From assembly GCF_056712565.1 (NCBI RefSeq), contig NZ_CM160072.1: a stretch of DNA of 64,000 bases, one strand, 5' to 3'. Below, piece after piece: positions 4,203 to 26,507 of the stretch. The position numbers and the translations under genes were made by a program. Position 1 is the first letter of the stretch; each line of letters starts with the position of its first letter. The notes under the pieces are model-generated. The model was given only the letters and a program-made list of their open reading frames with translations, had not been told where the DNA came from and made no database searches.

Positions 4203-7200
4203 ATGACAGAACAACAAAAATTGACCTTTACTGCCTTGCAGCAGCGGCTGGATTCGCTGATGCTGCGTGACAGACTGCGTTTTTCTCGCCGTCTGCACGG
4301 CGTGAAGAAGGTTAAAAATCCTGATGCACAACAGGCCATTTTCCAGGAGATGGCGAAAGAGATTGACCATGCGGCAGGGAAAGTCCTGCTGCGTGAAGCG
4401 GCACGACCGGAGATTACTTACCCGGACAATTTGCCGGTTAGTCAGAAAAAACAGGACATTCTCGAAGCGATTCGTGACCACCAGGTGGTGATCGTCGCCG
4501 GGGAAACGGGTTCCGGTAAAACGACTCAGCTACCGAAAATCTGTATGGAGCTGGGTCGCGGGATTAAAGGGCTGATCGGCCATACCCAGCCGCGTCGGCT
4601 GGCGGCGCGAACGGTGGCGAACCGTATTGCGGAAGAGCTAAAAACGGAGCCGGGCGGTTGCATCGGTTACAAAGTGCGTTTCAGCGATCACGTCAGTGAT
4701 AACACGATGGTCAAGCTGATGACCGACGGTATCCTGCTGGCAGAGATCCAGCAAGACCGCCTGCTGATGCAGTACGACACCATCATTATTGACGAAGCGC
4801 ACGAACGCAGCCTGAATATCGATTTTCTCCTCGGCTATTTGAAAGAGTTGCTGCCGCGGCGTCCTGACCTAAAAATTATTATCACTTCCGCGACTATCGA
4901 CCCGGAACGCTTTTCGCGCCACTTTAATAATGCGCCGATTATCGAAGTCTCCGGTCGGACCTATCCGGTGGAAGTGCGCTATCGCCCGATTGTTGAAGAA
5001 GCTGATGACACCGAGCGCGACCAGTTGCAGGCGATTTTCGATGCCGTAGATGAACTGAGCCAGGAAAGCCCTGGCGACATTCTGATTTTTATGAGCGGCG
5101 AGCGAGAAATTCGCGATACCGCCGATGCGCTGAACAAGCTGAACTTACGCCATACGGAAATTCTTCCGCTTTATGCACGGCTTTCGAACAGCGAGCAGAA
5201 CCGCGTCTTCCAGTCGCACAGCGGACGGCGCATTGTGCTGGCGACTAACGTCGCGGAAACCTCGCTGACCGTACCGGGGATTAAATACGTTATCGACCCA
5301 GGTACGGCGCGTATCAGCCGCTACAGCTATCGCACCAAAGTGCAGCGTTTGCCGATTGAGCCAATTTCGCAGGCTTCAGCTAATCAGCGTAAAGGCCGCT
5401 GCGGTCGTGTGTCAGAAGGGATCTGTATTCGTCTCTATTCCGAAGACGATTTCCTCTCGCGCCCGGAGTTTACCGACCCAGAAATTCTGCGTACTAACCT
5501 GGCCTCGGTTATTTTGCAGATGACCGCACTGGGCTTGGGCGATATCGCCGCATTCCCGTTTGTCGAAGCACCGGATAAACGCAATATCCAGGATGGCGTG
5601 CGTCTGCTCGAAGAACTGGGCGCGATCACCACGGATGAACAGGCCAGCGCCTATAAACTGACGCCGCTCGGTCGCCAGCTCTCGCAGTTGCCTGTCGACC
5701 CACGTCTGGCGCGTATGGTGCTGGAAGCGCAAAAACATGGCTGCGTGCGTGAGGCGATGATTATCACTTCCGCGCTCTCTATTCAGGACCCGCGTGAGCG
5801 GCCAATGGACAAGCAGCAGGCATCGGACGAAAAACATCGTCGCTTCCACGACAAAGAGTCTGACTTCCTCGCGTTTGTGAATCTGTGGAATTATCTTGGC
5901 GAGCAGCAAAAGGCGCTTTCTTCAAACGCCTTCCGTCGCCTGTGCCGTACTGATTATCTCAACTATCTGCGCGTGCGCGAATGGCAGGATATCTACACCC
6001 AGTTGCGCCAGGTGGTGAAAGAACTTGGCATTCCGGTTAACAGCGAACCGGCGGATTATCGCGAAATTCACATTGCGTTGCTGACCGGTTTGCTTTCGCA
6101 TATCGGCATGAAAGATGCCGATAAACAAGAATATACCGGCGCACGTAACGCGCGTTTCTCCATCTTCCCCGGTTCCGGCTTATTCAAAAAACCGCCGAAA
6201 TGGGTAATGGTGGCGGAACTGGTAGAAACCAGCCGCCTGTGGGGACGCATTGCTGCGCGGATCGACCCGGAATGGGTGGAGCCAGTTGCTCAGCATTTGA
6301 TTAAACGCACCTATAGCGAACCGCACTGGGAACGGGCGCAGGGCGCGGTGATGGCAACGGAAAAAGTCACTGTTTATGGTTTGCCGATTGTTGCCGCGCG
6401 CAAGGTCAACTACAGCCAGATCGATCCGGCGTTATGTCGTGAACTCTTTATTCGCCACGCGCTGGTGGAAGGTGACTGGCAGACGCGTCACGCATTCTTC
6501 CGTGAAAACCTGAAACTACGGGCCGAAGTGGAAGAACTGGAACACAAAACTCGTCGCCGCGATATTCTGGTGGATGACGAAACGTTGTTTGAGTTCTACG
6601 ACCAGCGCATCAGCCACGATGTGATCTCCGCACGCCATTTCGACAGCTGGTGGAAAAAAGTCAGCCGCGAAACGCCTGATTTGCTCAACTTTGAAAAGAG
6701 CATGTTGATCAAAGAAGGGGCGGAAAAAATCAGCAAACTGGATTACCCGAACTTCTGGCATCAGGGCAATCTCAAACTGCGTTTGAGCTATCAGTTTGAG
6801 CCCGGCGCGGATGCTGACGGTGTGACCGTGCATATCCCGCTGCCGCTACTTAACCAGGTTGAGGAGAGTGGGTTTGAGTGGCAGATCCCCGGTCTGCGTC
6901 GTGAGCTGATCATCGCCCTGATTAAATCGCTGCCGAAGCCGGTACGCCGTAATTTTGTGCCCGCGCCAAACTTCGCCGAAGCGTTTTTAGGCCGCGTCAC
7001 ACCGCTGGAATTGCCGTTGCTCGACAGCCTTGAACGAGAGTTACGGCGGATGACTGGCGTCACCGTTGACCGCGAAGACTGGCACTGGGATCAGGTGCCC
7101 GATCACCTGAAAATCACTTTCCGCGTGGTGGATGACAAAAACAAGAAGCTAAAAGAAGGGCGCTCATTACAGGATCTGAAAGACGCCCTGAAAGGCAAAG

Positions 7201-22646: not shown

Positions 22647-22674
22647 GCGCCATCGTTAGATGGCGCTTTTTATT
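22647..22674 (+). terminator. rho-independent terminator of ydcL
   Basis: Stem gcgccatc / gatggcgc, loop gtta, followed by tttttatt; overlaps the 3' end of convergent ydcO. Confidence 0.65.
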
Positions 22675-23845
22675 ATCGGTTTCTGTCAGCGATTAAATTC
22701 AACACCACGTAACAAACGCCTCCGGCAATTAATCCCCAAAACGCAGAACCAATCCCGAACAGCGTCAATCCACTTGCCGTTACCAGAAATGCCACCACCG
22801 CCGCGTCGCGCTCACGCTCATTATGCAGCGCCTGATACAAACTGCCGCCAATGGTACTCAACAGCGCAAGACCTGCCAGCATCTGGATCCAACTTACGGG
22901 CAGGGCAGCCATCATCCCGGTAATGGCACTACCAAACAGACCTGCGATCAAATAAAAAATGCCGGCAACGGCAGCGGCCAGCCAACGTTGATCTTTATCC
23001 GGATGCGCTTCCGGGCTTTGGCAAATAGCCGCGGTGATTGCCGCAATACCGACGGAATAAACGCCGAAAGGGGAAAAAACAAGCGCCAGCAATCCAGTAA
23101 ACACAATCAACGGCGAAACAGGAGCCGAATACCCGGCTGCTTTCATTGCTGCGATACCCGGTGCGTTTTGCGATGCCATCGTCACCAGAAAAAGGGGGAG
23201 TGCAACGCTCAGACTGTGAGCAAACGAAAAATCAGGGGGAATATAAGTGGGGAGAACGGGTTTAAAGACAACATCAGTTGTGACAACGTCACCTTGCGCG
23301 ATAACGATCACGATCCCAATAATCATCGCGGCAATTACCGCATAGCGCGGCGCAACGGCCCTGGTTGCCAGCCATGCCAGCAACATACTGCCACACAACG
23401 TAAATTGACCATCCAGACTGGCAAACGCCTGTAAACCAAAACGTAATAAAATCCCGGCAAGCATTGCCGCCGCAAGCGAGTGCGGAATAATGCGCATCAG
23501 ACGAGCAAAGAGTCCCGTTATGCCGCAGAGGACTATTAACACGTTGGTGACAATAAAAACGCCGATGGTTTCGTTAAGTGTTAGTCCCTGCAATCCGGTG
23601 ACCAACAAAGCCGCGCCAGGCGTTGACCATGCGGTGAGAACAGGTACGCGATACCATAATGTCAGAGCCAGCGTACTGACGCCCATTGCCAGCCCCAGCG
23701 CCGTCATCCAGCCAGAGATTTGTGCAGTGGTGGCTCCGGCGACAATCGCTGCTTGCCAGATTATTGCCGCTGAACTGGCGTAGCCAATTAATACCGCCAG
23801 AAACCCCGCCAGTAGCGTGGGTGGAGGAATAGAAAACAGACGCAT
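22673..23845 (-). CDS. ydcO: BenE-family (benzoate transporter-like) membrane protein
   Basis: Track ORF 22673..23968; start re-set to MRLFSIPPPTLLAGFLAV (about 390 aa); highly hydrophobic polytopic protein. Confidence 0.8.
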   Translation of the reverse strand: MRLFSIPPPTLLAGFLAVLIGYASSAAIIWQAAIVAGATTAQISGWMTALGLAMGVSTLALTLWYRVPVLTAWSTPGAALLVTGLQGLTLNETIGVFIVTNVLIVLCGITGLFARLMRIIPHSLAAAMLAGILLRFGLQAFASLDGQFTLCGSMLLAWLATRAVAPRYAVIAAMIIGIVIVIAQGDVVTTDVVFKPVLPTYIPPDFSFAHSLSVALPLFLVTMASQNAPGIAAMKAAGYSAPVSPLIVFTGLLALVFSPFGVYSVGIAAITAAICQSPEAHPDKDQRWLAAAVAGIFYLIAGLFGSAITGMMAALPVSWIQMLAGLALLSTIGGSLYQALHNERERDAAVVAFLVTASGLTLFGIGSAFWGLIAGGVCYVVLNLIADRNR

Positions 23846-23854
23846 AGTCACCTC

Positions 23855-23902
23855 GTGCGTTATAACGTACAGGTACCGTAGCATTTGTCCGTTATAACGC
23901 AC
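23855..23902. promoter_or_regulatory. candidate operator: two copies of the palindrome cgttataacg in the divergent ydcO-sutR control region
   Basis: gtgcgttataacg (about 23855-23867) and cgttataacgcac (about 23890-23902) are exact reverse complements; each core cgttataacg is itself palindromic; located between divergent starts of ydcO and the XRE/cupin regulator gene. Confidence 0.4.
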
Positions 23903-23936
23903 AAGTGATAAACTTCCGTTTTGCCGGAGGAGTCGC

Positions 23937-24473
23937 ATGGAAAATCTCGCTCGCTTTTTATCCACCACACTTAAACAACTACGTCAGCAGCGCGGCTGGA
24001 GTCTTTCGCGACTGGCAGAAGCGACGGGCGTTTCTAAAGCGATGTTAGGGCAGATTGAGCGTAATGAATCCAGCCCGACGGTCGCGACATTATGGAAAAT
24101 TGCCACCGGGTTGAACGTGCCATTTTCAACATTTATTTCCCCGCCGCAGTCCGCTACGCCTTCAGTTTATGATCCACAACGGCAGGCGATGGTGATCACT
24201 TCGCTGTTTCCTTATGATCCACAACTCTGCTTTGAACACTTCTCGATTCAGATGGCACCCGGTGCAATAAGCGAATCGACGCCCCATGAAAAGGGGGTAA
24301 TCGAACATGTCGTCGTCATTGATGGACAACTTGATCTGTGTGTTGATGGTGAATGGCAGAGCCTTAATTGTGGGGAAGGCGTTCGATTTGCTGCAGACGT
24401 CACGCATGTCTATCGTAATGGTGGAGAGCAAACCGTACATTTTCATTCCCTCATCCATTACCCGCGCAGTTAA
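23937..24473 (+). CDS. sutR: XRE-family HTH + cupin-domain transcriptional regulator (SutR/YdcN)
   Basis: 178 aa ORF; N-terminal HTH (LSRLAEATGVSKAMLGQIERNES) and C-terminal cupin-like domain. Confidence 0.8.
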   Translation: MENLARFLSTTLKQLRQQRGWSLSRLAEATGVSKAMLGQIERNESSPTVATLWKIATGLNVPFSTFISPPQSATPSVYDPQRQAMVITSLFPYDPQLCFEHFSIQMAPGAISESTPHEKGVIEHVVVIDGQLDLCVDGEWQSLNCGEGVRFAADVTHVYRNGGEQTVHFHSLIHYPRS

Positions 24474-24545
24474 GCGGGAAAACTATTTCGCAACGTCGCG
24501 CTTGTGGCTAAAATAGCCGCCATTTTTCAGCTACTGGATAAGAAA

Positions 24546-26507
24546 GTGACCGTATCTTCTCATCGTCTTGAACTGTTAAGCCCGGCACGCGATGCCGCCA
24601 TTGCCCGCGAAGCTATTTTGCACGGTGCCGATGCTGTTTATATCGGCGGCCCTGGTTTTGGTGCCCGTCATAATGCCAGTAATAGCCTGAAAGATATTGC
24701 CGAGTTGGTGCCGTTTGCCCATCGTTATGGTGCAAAAATTTTCGTCACGCTTAACACCATTTTGCATGATGATGAGCTGGAACCCGCGCAACGGCTGATT
24801 ACTGACCTCTACCAGACCGGTGTCGATGCGCTGATTGTTCAGGATATGGGGATTCTGGAACTTGATATTCCGCCGATTGAACTGCACGCCAGTACGCAGT
24901 GCGATATTCGTACAGTAGAAAAAGCGAAGTTCCTCTCTGATGTTGGCTTCACGCAGATTGTGCTGGCGCGAGAGCTGAATCTTGAGCAGCTCCGCGCGAT
25001 TCACCAGGCCACGGACGCGACCATTGAATTCTTTATTCATGGCGCATTGTGCGTGGCCTATTCGGGTCAGTGCTACATTTCTCATGCGCAAACAGGGCGT
25101 AGCGCCAACCGTGGCGATTGCTCGCAGGCGTGCCGTTTGCCATACACATTGAAAGACGATCAGGGGCGGGTGGTTTCCTATGAAAAACATCTGCTGTCGA
25201 TGAAAGATAACGATCAGACTGCCAACCTCGGCGCGCTGATTGATGCTGGCGTACGCTCCTTCAAGATTGAAGGGCGTTACAAAGATATGAGCTACGTGAA
25301 GAATATCACCGCCCATTATCGTCAGATGCTGGATGCCATTATTGAAGAACGTGGCGATCTGGCGCGCGCTTCATCAGGTCGTACTGAACATTTCTTTGTT
25401 CCATCGACGGAAAAGACTTTCCACCGTGGTAGCACAGATTATTTTGTGAATGCCCGTAAAGGCGATATTGGCGCGTTCGATTCGCCGAAATTTATCGGCC
25501 TGCCGGTGGGCGAAGTATTGAAAGTAGCGAAAGATCATATTGATGTTGCCGTTACCGAGCCACTGGCAAATGGCGATGGCCTGAACGTGATGATTAAACG
25601 TGAAGTCGTCGGTTTTCGTGCCAATACGGTAGAGAAAACCGGAGAAAATCAGTACCGCGTCTGGCCCAATGAAATGCCAGCAGATTTGCACAAAATTCGC
25701 CCGCATCACCCACTAAACCGTAATCTTGATCATAACTGGCAGCAGGCACTGACAAAAACCTCCAGCGAACGTCGGGTGGCGGTAGACATTGAACTGGGCG
25801 GCTGGCAGGAACAACTGATTCTGACCCTCACCAGTGAAGAGGGTGTCAGCATCACACATACGCTGGACGGGCAGTTCGACGAAGCCAATAACGCCGAAAA
25901 AGCAATGAACAATCTGAAGGATGGTCTGGCAAAACTGGGGCAAACCATCTATTACGCCCGCAATGTGCAAATTAATTTGCCGGGGGCGCTGTTTGTACCA
26001 AACAGTCTGTTAAACCAGTTCCGCCGTGAAGCCGCCGATATGCTTGATGCTGCGCGTCTTGCCAGTTACCAGCGCGGCAGCCGTAAACCGGTTGCTGATC
26101 CTGCGCCAGTTTATCCGCAAACGCATCTGAGTTTCCTCGCGAACGTATACAACCAGAAAGCGCGTGAATTTTATCATCGCTATGGTGTGCAACTGATTGA
26201 CGCGGCGTATGAGGCACATGAAGAGAAGGGCGAAGTCCCGGTGATGATCACCAAGCATTGTCTGCGCTTTGCCTTCAATCTGTGCCCGAAACAGGCGAAA
26301 GGCAATATCAAAAGCTGGAAGGCGACGCCAATGCAACTGGTTAACGGCGATGAAGTATTAACGCTAAAGTTTGATTGCCGCCCATGCGAGATGCACGTCA
26401 TTGGCAAAATCAAAAATCACATACTGAAAATGCCGTTACCGGGAAGCGTAGTGGCATCCGTAAGTCCGGATGATCTGCTGAAAACATTGCCGAAGCGAAA
26501 AGGGTAA
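24546..26507 (+). CDS. ydcP: peptidase-U32-family protein (23S rRNA 5-hydroxycytidine synthase RlhA/YdcP)
   Basis: Track ORF 24504..26507; probable GTG start near 24546 gives about 653 aa; U32 family signature region (EFFIHGALCVAYSGQCYIS). Confidence 0.8.
   Translation: MTVSSHRLELLSPARDAAIAREAILHGADAVYIGGPGFGARHNASNSLKDIAELVPFAHRYGAKIFVTLNTILHDDELEPAQRLITDLYQTGVDALIVQDMGILELDIPPIELHASTQCDIRTVEKAKFLSDVGFTQIVLARELNLEQLRAIHQATDATIEFFIHGALCVAYSGQCYISHAQTGRSANRGDCSQACRLPYTLKDDQGRVVSYEKHLLSMKDNDQTANLGALIDAGVRSFKIEGRYKDMSYVKNITAHYRQMLDAIIEERGDLARASSGRTEHFFVPSTEKTFHRGSTDYFVNARKGDIGAFDSPKFIGLPVGEVLKVAKDHIDVAVTEPLANGDGLNVMIKREVVGFRANTVEKTGENQYRVWPNEMPADLHKIRPHHPLNRNLDHNWQQALTKTSSERRVAVDIELGGWQEQLILTLTSEEGVSITHTLDGQFDEANNAEKAMNNLKDGLAKLGQTIYYARNVQINLPGALFVPNSLLNQFRREAADMLDAARLASYQRGSRKPVADPAPVYPQTHLSFLANVYNQKAREFYHRYGVQLIDAAYEAHEEKGEVPVMITKHCLRFAFNLCPKQAKGNIKSWKATPMQLVNGDEVLTLKFDCRPCEMHVIGKIKNHILKMPLPGSVVASVSPDDLLKTLPKRKG

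Follow-up and report, generated by a model that had tools for sequence, protein, structure and literature searches.

Cro/CI-type phage repressors (lambda and 434, at OR1/OR2) and the controller (C) proteins of restriction-modification systems (C.BclI, C.Esp1396I) act as dimers with an XRE/Cro-type helix-turn-helix (HTH) domain, as would SutR of Escherichia coli, and they bind adjacent palindromic operators that overlap core promoters, including the regulator's own. The paired sites described below, in the spacer between the divergent genes ydcO and sutR, would be of the same kind. However, the phage repressors and C proteins combine a fixed operator spacing with cooperative dimer-dimer contacts, whereas the SutR sites are spaced at 27, 31-32 or 35-38 bp, and SutR, unlike them, carries a cupin as its effector domain. 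A second parallel within E. coli is PuuR, which Nemoto et al. are said to have described in 2012 (J Bacteriol) as an HTH_3 plus cupin repressor of the divergent puuA/puuD region. Like SutR, PuuR reportedly joins an HTH_3 domain to a cupin, binds at more than one place in a divergent region, its own operon included, and responds to a small molecule that relieves repression, as is proposed here for SutR; unlike SutR, it is said to recognize a different, AT-rich sequence and to have more sites.

The closest precedent of all is the published binding of SutR (YdcN) at ydcO/ydcN, which concerns the same protein at the same locus and in which the ChIP-exo peak corresponds to one of the two sites, termed site 1 below (PMC5934670, PMC8464067). 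The binding of SutR in the ydcO-sutR spacer was therefore already known from gSELEX (Yamamoto, Nakano, and Ishihama 2015, PMID 25406449, as tabulated in PMC5934670) and ChIP-exo (2021), and the palindromic nature of its motif from the latter. Among solved structures, the closest homologues of SutR are 1Y9Q (VC1968, Vibrio cholerae) and 6B8W (E = 1e-36 and 2e-38, respectively), neither of which contains a DNA complex or a ligand; 1Y9Q was the template for the published SWISS-MODEL prediction that SutR is a dimer (PMC8464067 Table S2). The HTH domains of C.BclI, SinR, and HipB are also among the PDB sequence matches to SutR.

The present analysis covers a 64,000-nucleotide stretch of DNA (hereafter, the window). 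To the published picture it adds a 16-bp consensus, a two-site layout with mirror-image promoters, broad conservation of this layout, its anchoring to ydcO, and a putative weakening of site 2 in E. coli. The texts consulted (PMC8464067 and PMC5934670) give no account of the pairing of the sites, their 16-bp consensus, the way in which the divergent promoters would share an operator, the ydcO anchoring, or the wide conservation.

The sutR and ydcO Genes

In the window, ydcO occupies positions 22673..23845 on the minus strand and encodes a BenE-family transporter (Pfam BenE, E = 2.8e-160; K-12 annotation), while sutR (ydcN), at 23937..24473 on the plus strand, encodes an HTH_3 plus Cupin_2 regulator (Pfam; annotation). 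The XRE-type HTH_3 domain of SutR spans residues 12-64 (Pfam, E = 1.1e-16) and the Cupin_2 domain residues 104-171 (Pfam). Residues 31-57 (TGVSKAMLGQIERNESSPTVATLWKIA), which make up the recognition-helix region, are nearly invariant among orthologues, paralleling the near-invariant DNA motif described below. Literature mentioning ydcO yielded no functional data on the E. coli gene, and the term 'SuTR' in a 2026 bioRxiv paper was discarded as an unrelated reporter acronym.

Downstream of sutR lies rlhA (24504-26507), encoding the 23S rRNA 5-hydroxycytidine C2501 synthase, which has a transcription start site (TSS) of its own at 1506756 (PMC6131387). A read-through transcript covering b1434 and b1435 from the sutR TSS is listed in the SMRT-Cappable-seq table of the same study (PMC6131387), so that sutR and rlhA can be co-transcribed (23918-26507).

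Annotation of the ydcO start codon is inconsistent. The RefSeq/PGAP start is 13 codons longer than that of K-12 in at least some E. coli genomes; for example, it corresponds to window position 23884 in strain SK1144, versus 23845 in K-12. The long form (23846-23884) would take site 1 and the conserved -10 element discussed below into the coding sequence. Since orthologue alignments start at MRLFS, the long start is probably wrong, and many RefSeq E. coli genomes probably carry a mis-annotated ydcO start. A 431-aa GTG-initiated open reading frame (22673-23968, minus strand) spans the whole spacer into sutR, and the inconsistent start annotations are probably due to it. This frame is an artefact of the upstream extension of ydcO.

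Two 16-bp Palindromes in the ydcO-sutR Spacer

The original prediction, made from the sequence alone, described a self-complementary 10-mer occurring twice between the ydcO and sutR starts, each copy within a 13-bp arm, with a further palindrome, GGTACC, between them, and it took this architecture to be that expected of an operator for an autoregulated XRE-family dimer. Its description of the DNA was accurate. The 10-mer CGTTATAACG is found at exactly two places in the window, 23858-67 and 23890-99, both of them between the ydcO start (23845, minus strand) and the sutR start (23937); the 13-bp arms (23855-67 and 23890-902) are exact reverse complements of each other, with 22 bp between them; and GGTACC is present at 23872-77. 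The stretch with both palindromes reads ...cctcGTGCGTTATAACGTACaggtaccgtagcatttGTCCGTTATAACGCACaagtgataaac..., and the spacer from the ydcO ATG (23845, minus strand) to the sutR ATG (23937) reads ...cctcGTGCGTTATAACGTACaggtaccgtagcatttGTCCGTTATAACGCACaagtgataaacttccgttttgccggaggagtcgcATG.

By chance, 0.11 copies of the 10-mer would be expected in 64 kb, and at least two copies arose in 1 of 100 shuffles. The 16-mer GTGCGTTATAACGCAC, with up to three mismatches allowed, matches the window at the same two places only, versus 0.34 matches expected. Because the two matches lie 32 bp apart within a single 91-bp intergenic spacer, the pair is far beyond chance.

The unit, however, is larger than originally proposed: the palindromy stands, but the real unit measures 16 bp rather than 10 or 13. 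Each copy of CGTTATAACG forms the core of a 16-bp palindrome with the consensus GTGCGYTATARCGYAC, and each window copy has one asymmetric position. The dyad consists of the half-sites GTGCGYTA and TARCGYAC, roughly one helical turn apart, and both halves are kept in the family logo. Site 1, the ydcO-proximal SutR operator (GTGCGTTATAACGTAC), spans 23855..23870 and lies under the K-12 YdcN ChIP-exo peak, whereas site 2 (GTCCGTTATAACGCAC; 23887..23902) is a putative sutR-proximal SutR operator, identified by its sequence and the family logo; neither has a strand orientation. The two are 32 bp apart, centre to centre. In a repeat search, the arms of the inverted repeat grew to 20 nt (90% complementary); a direct repeat with 32-bp spacing was also returned, as was an extended palindrome at 23879-23910, made up of mirror-image -10 elements around site 2.

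The perfect twin is one allele. The region 23600-24500 is 100% identical to that of strain ATCC 11775, and it is present in 5413 of 5426 complete E. coli genomes (best match 95-100% identity, annotated ydcO / sutR). The exact window haplotype was found in 1257 of the 5426, and the K-12 haplotype in 3623 (about two thirds, with GGCACC). K-12 has CGTTATAGCG in site 1, and this A to G difference from the window falls on the degenerate R of the family consensus; it also has GGCACC in place of GGTACC. As K-12 and most E. coli genomes differ from the window there, GGTACC is not a conserved feature. By our own estimate, roughly one 22-bp spacer in four would contain some 6-bp palindrome by chance. 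The reading of GGTACC as a third functional palindrome was rejected on these grounds: K-12 has GGCACC, the GGTACC haplotype is in the minority, and the position is unconserved across other genera. GGTACC is a chance, strain-specific sequence and is not functional.

Occupancy by SutR

The gSELEX target list of SutR includes ydcO/ydcN (PMC5934670 table). ChIP-exo of YdcN in K-12 identified 62 sites (Gao et al. 2021, PMC8464067, Dataset S4), and the motif derived from them with MEME was termed palindromic (PMC8464067). The strongest of the peaks, by about tenfold (S/N 1344.75), lies next to ydcN at NC_000913.2 1504105-1504137 (PMC8464067). Peaks were mapped through the K-12 record NC_000913.3, with an offset of +1975/6 between genome versions, and then through the K-12/window alignment. 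By this route, the strongest peak falls at window positions 23845-23877, centred on site 1, with the site 1 16-mer at peak offset +9/+10. SutR binding as reported by ChIP-exo thus coincides with site 1, and gSELEX places SutR at the same spacer.

The same 16-mer recurs at other peaks. For each of the next six (dppA, yehB, fucO, ttdB, caiF, and mltD), the best match was sought within a 451-bp stretch, which checks both the genome offset and the motif, and in 6/6 it lay at offset +8 to +11; random 451-bp windows mostly gave 6-7 mismatches at best, at arbitrary positions. Being centred in the next six strongest peaks, the motif of the original prediction is the motif that SutR occupies in vivo. 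The fucO peak contains an exact CGTTATAACG.

The exact CGTTATAACG of the fucO peak lies within the K-12 fucO coding region (L084, ~218-233), under a YdcN peak with an S/N of 21, and GAACGCTAAAACGCAC lies far upstream of dppA in K-12 (L082, ~217-232), under a peak with an S/N of 141.

In the ydcO-sutR spacer, ChIP-exo yielded a single 33-bp peak, on site 1, and none was reported separately on site 2. Position 3 of site 2 is G in 74 of the 76 orthologous site 2 copies and C (GTCCG) in E. coli; C3 is shared by the window, K-12, and a divergent E. coli lineage (L002). Judged from these sequences, the change from G3 to C would weaken site 2 specifically in the E. coli lineage, and it may be the reason that ChIP-exo calls only site 1, despite the perfect 10-mer core of site 2.

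Promoter Layout

A consensus promoter scan returned nothing in the spacer, its one weak match lying inside ydcO, and the promoter elements became visible only by alignment of 48 enterobacterial spacers. Between the two sites, the conserved columns read A..TA.CA on the plus strand, which corresponds to TGnTAnnnT, an extended -10, on the ydcO strand; the conserved columns are exactly TG, T1, A2, and T6. In the window, the extended -10 predicted for ydcO (TGCTACGGT) is located at 23875..23883 on the minus strand (TG 23883-82, hexamer 23880-75). Of 77 loci, 71 have TGnTAnnnT on the ydcO strand, separated from site 2 by 2-3 nt. Transcription of ydcO would begin 7 nt downstream of the conserved -10, at ~23868 (23866..23870, minus strand), just within the right edge of site 1, and in 55 of the 71 loci the predicted start lies at -2..0 from the edge of site 1. 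No ydcO TSS is present in the SMRT-Cappable-seq data set that contains the sutR TSS (PMC6131387), and none emerged from a wider search of the TSS literature. The ydcO Shine-Dalgarno sequence, GAGGTGA (23848..23854, minus strand), directly abuts site 1, and its CTCC-type column is conserved.

To the right of site 2, the conserved columns read TGnTAnnCT on the plus strand, an extended -10 for sutR. This -10 region (TGATAAACT) occupies 23906..23914 on the plus strand (TG 23906-07, hexamer 23909-14), and in the window it is the exact mirror image of the ydcO -10 element about the site 2 dyad. On the sutR strand, 32/77 loci have TGnTAnnnT at a distance of 3-4 nt from site 2, and 47/77 have TAnnnT. 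The TSS of b1434 has been mapped by SMRT-Cappable-seq to 1506153 on the forward strand (PMC6131387, supplementary file 4), and the K-12/window alignment transfers it to a G at 23918 on the plus strand, such that site 2 spans -31..-16 relative to it. The mapped TSS is 3 nt upstream of that predicted from TAAACT, and GATAAA fits it better.

Candidate -35 elements overlap site 2 from either side. For the sutR promoter, a -35-like TTGTCC (23885..23890, plus strand) overlaps the left half of site 2, and for the ydcO promoter, a -35-like TTGTGC (23899..23904, minus strand) overlaps its right half together with the ACAAG flank. The GYACAAG flank to the right of site 2 is kept in the alignment.

Conservation of the Twin Sites

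A protein-guided scan with one genome per species yielded 80 sutR-orthologue loci. These include Escherichia, Citrobacter, Klebsiella, Enterobacter, Serratia, Yersinia, Erwinia, and Pectobacterium, as well as Halomonadaceae (Halomonas, Chromohalobacter, and Billgrantia) and the betaproteobacterium Paenalcaligenes. The divergent neighbour of sutR is ydcO in 78/80, and the palindrome pair is found in the ydcO-sutR spacer of 76/80. Its logo, G-T-G-C-G-Y-T-A-T-A-R-C-G-Y-A-C, carries ~26-27 bits per site, and outside the spacers there are just 18 matches (with up to 4 mismatches) in 400 kb. Both of the loci without ydcO also lack the operator pair, and their SutR recognition helix is unchanged. In these two, from Kosakonia cowanii and Klebsiella spallanzanii (L015 and L019, 1-2500), a same-strand MFS_2 transporter and an AraC-family regulator replace ydcO, and the SutR HTH is identical while the operator pair is absent.

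The reverse search took the DNA pattern alone (GTGCGYTATARC, 15-33 N, GTGCGYTATARCG) to metagenome contigs, where 52 loci were informative, having at least 700 bp on either side. Both sutR and ydcO flank the pattern in 45 of these, ydcO only in 4, sutR only in 2, and neither in 1; one or both genes are thus present in 51/52, and the identity of SutR in this set falls as low as 39%. Several metagenome loci depart from the common plan. In L142 (2259-2303), the twin sites have neither gene nearby and lie inside a short direct repeat, AAAACCnGTGCG...CGCACCATTT. In L145 and L147 (~4356-4413), they adjoin a 37%-identical ydcO homologue with no sutR, and in L129 (9128-9175), sutR is accompanied by a 170-aa divergent gene in the place of ydcO. 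Among the genomes, Cedecea colo has a third near-consensus site, GTGCGTCATAGCGCAC, with 2 mismatches, ~125 bp past the 3' end of ydcO (L051, ~1125-1140), which may mark an extra member of the regulon.

Taken as a whole, the regulator has an HTH_3 domain and its sites are dyad-symmetric, as in dimeric XRE/Cro-C1-type operators. The DNA is occupied by SutR (ChIP-exo over site 1; gSELEX for the spacer), the motif is common to other SutR-bound sites (6/6 of the next-strongest peaks), and it co-occurs with the regulator gene (76/80 genome and 51/52 metagenome loci). The original reading of the palindromes as an XRE-family dimer operator is supported by the HTH_3 regulator, the ChIP-exo peak on site 1, and this co-occurrence with sutR/ydcO.

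Anchoring to ydcO and Spacing of the Sites

In Enterobacteriaceae, 10-16 bp separate site 1 from the ydcO start codon, while the distance from the sites to sutR varies from about 35 to 270 bp across lineages. In Klebsiella/Raoultella, the sites are 140-300 bp from sutR, and a separate TATAAT/TATACT-like element lies near sutR. Likewise, some metagenome loci lack sutR or have it 4.6 kb off, and there the twin sites still lie beside ydcO. With the sites fixed relative to the ydcO start and promoter in all lineages and variable in their distance from sutR, control of ydcO appears to be the conserved function. With over 100 bp between the sites and sutR in Klebsiella/Raoultella, autoregulation by this route is not universal. 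The operator overlaps the core promoter of sutR in K-12 and does not in Klebsiella/Raoultella. The predicted autoregulation accordingly holds in part: it is likely in E. coli, where site 2 spans -31..-16 of the sutR TSS, and it does not extend to Klebsiella/Raoultella.

Measured from start to start, the spacings of the two sites fall into groups at 27, 31-32, and 35-38 bp and show no periodicity of 10.5 bp. Such variable spacing without helical periodicity argues against an obligatory cooperative tetramer, and a tetramer of this sort on one face of the DNA is disfavoured, the spacings not being multiples of 10.5.

Proposed Mechanism

The palindromes are best read as SutR dimer operators within two overlapping, back-to-back divergent promoters, where SutR would repress by excluding RNA polymerase until a ligand of its cupin domain relieves the repression; this reading is assigned a probability of roughly 0.9. 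In this mechanism, SutR dimers (XRE-type HTH plus cupin) would bind both 16-bp palindromes. Site 2 would lie between the -35 and -10 of the sutR promoter and, by mirror symmetry, also between the -35 and -10 of the extended -10 ydcO promoter, at about -34..-19. Site 1 would cover the predicted ydcO start, at about -2..+14, abutting the ydcO ribosome-binding site. Bound SutR would then shut out RNA polymerase, such that ydcO would be repressed via both sites and sutR via site 2, and derepression would follow once the cupin domain senses its ligand. Occlusion of RNA polymerase is the best-supported mechanism because site 2 is predicted to fall in the spacers of both promoters and site 1 over the predicted ydcO start.

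Alternative Explanations

The alternative that fares best, though its chances are small, is that SutR at site 2 activates transcription, whether by binding in the promoter spacer and remodelling a promoter with an 18-bp spacer, or by exerting opposite effects on the two promoters. The annotation of SutR as a 'dual regulator' in databases would fit such a role, as would the centring of site 2 in the spacer of promoters that have a weak -35 and spacers put at 16-18 bp. Proteins combining an XRE-type HTH with a cupin are not known to be spacer-twisting activators, however, and a site lying across the predicted ydcO start, as site 1 does, is where a repressor typically binds. The ydcO-sutR ChIP-exo site, in the sutR promoter region, is flagged as RNAP-bound too (PMC8464067), which is also in keeping with activation, yet the expression of ydcO and sutR is weak under standard conditions (base means ~36-40; PMC8464067 Dataset S6), and this, along with the failure to detect a ydcO TSS, fits repression.

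Less probable still is an effect at the RNA level, in which the repeats would fold, within a long ydcO leader, into a hairpin masking the ribosome-binding site, or would serve as an attenuator or terminator. For a minus-strand transcript of 23846-23910, a hairpin of -31.6 kcal/mol (z = -6.4) is indeed predicted, with its 3' arm extending into GAGGUGA, and the inverted repeat reaches 20 nt. Such a fold is nonetheless a trivial outcome of two palindrome copies. With the extended -10 located between the sites, the ydcO transcript is predicted to begin within site 1 and so to leave out site 2, and the sutR transcript begins downstream of both. At the variable positions there is no sign of compensatory change, with A-C combinations in 9/52 distinct site pairs; no terminator-like site was found in a scan; and single copies of the motif lie under other SutR ChIP-exo peaks. 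A single long inverted repeat with 13- or 20-bp arms, acting as a functional hairpin or cruciform, was likewise rejected, given the variable spacing, the lack of covariation, and the palindromy of each site on its own.

Finally, it is most improbable that some other regulator mainly binds the palindromes, with SutR occupancy being incidental, for although the sutR promoter region is marked as RNAP-bound as well, seven independent SutR ChIP-exo peaks have the motif at their centre, the motif accompanies sutR and ydcO over very wide phylogenetic distances, and the near-invariant recognition helix of SutR matches a near-invariant motif.

Biological Significance

Repression by SutR dimers at both palindromes thus remains the preferred reading, and it refines a published binding site without overturning current knowledge. 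The twin operator and the predicted extended -10 ydcO promoter have been kept as one module in Enterobacterales, Halomonadaceae, marine metagenome lineages, and a betaproteobacterium, and this module remains with ydcO where sutR has moved off and is gone where ydcO has been replaced. The odds appear about even that SutR is primarily, and by ancestry, a repressor of ydcO that acts locally and responds to a ligand, and not a general regulator of 'sulfur utilization'. The analysis provides an operator and promoter layout at base-pair resolution for a poorly studied E. coli regulator, and the 16-bp consensus can be used for regulon prediction in other bacteria. As the conserved target appears to be the uncharacterized transporter YdcO, the layout also suggests where to seek both the ligand of SutR and the substrate of YdcO.
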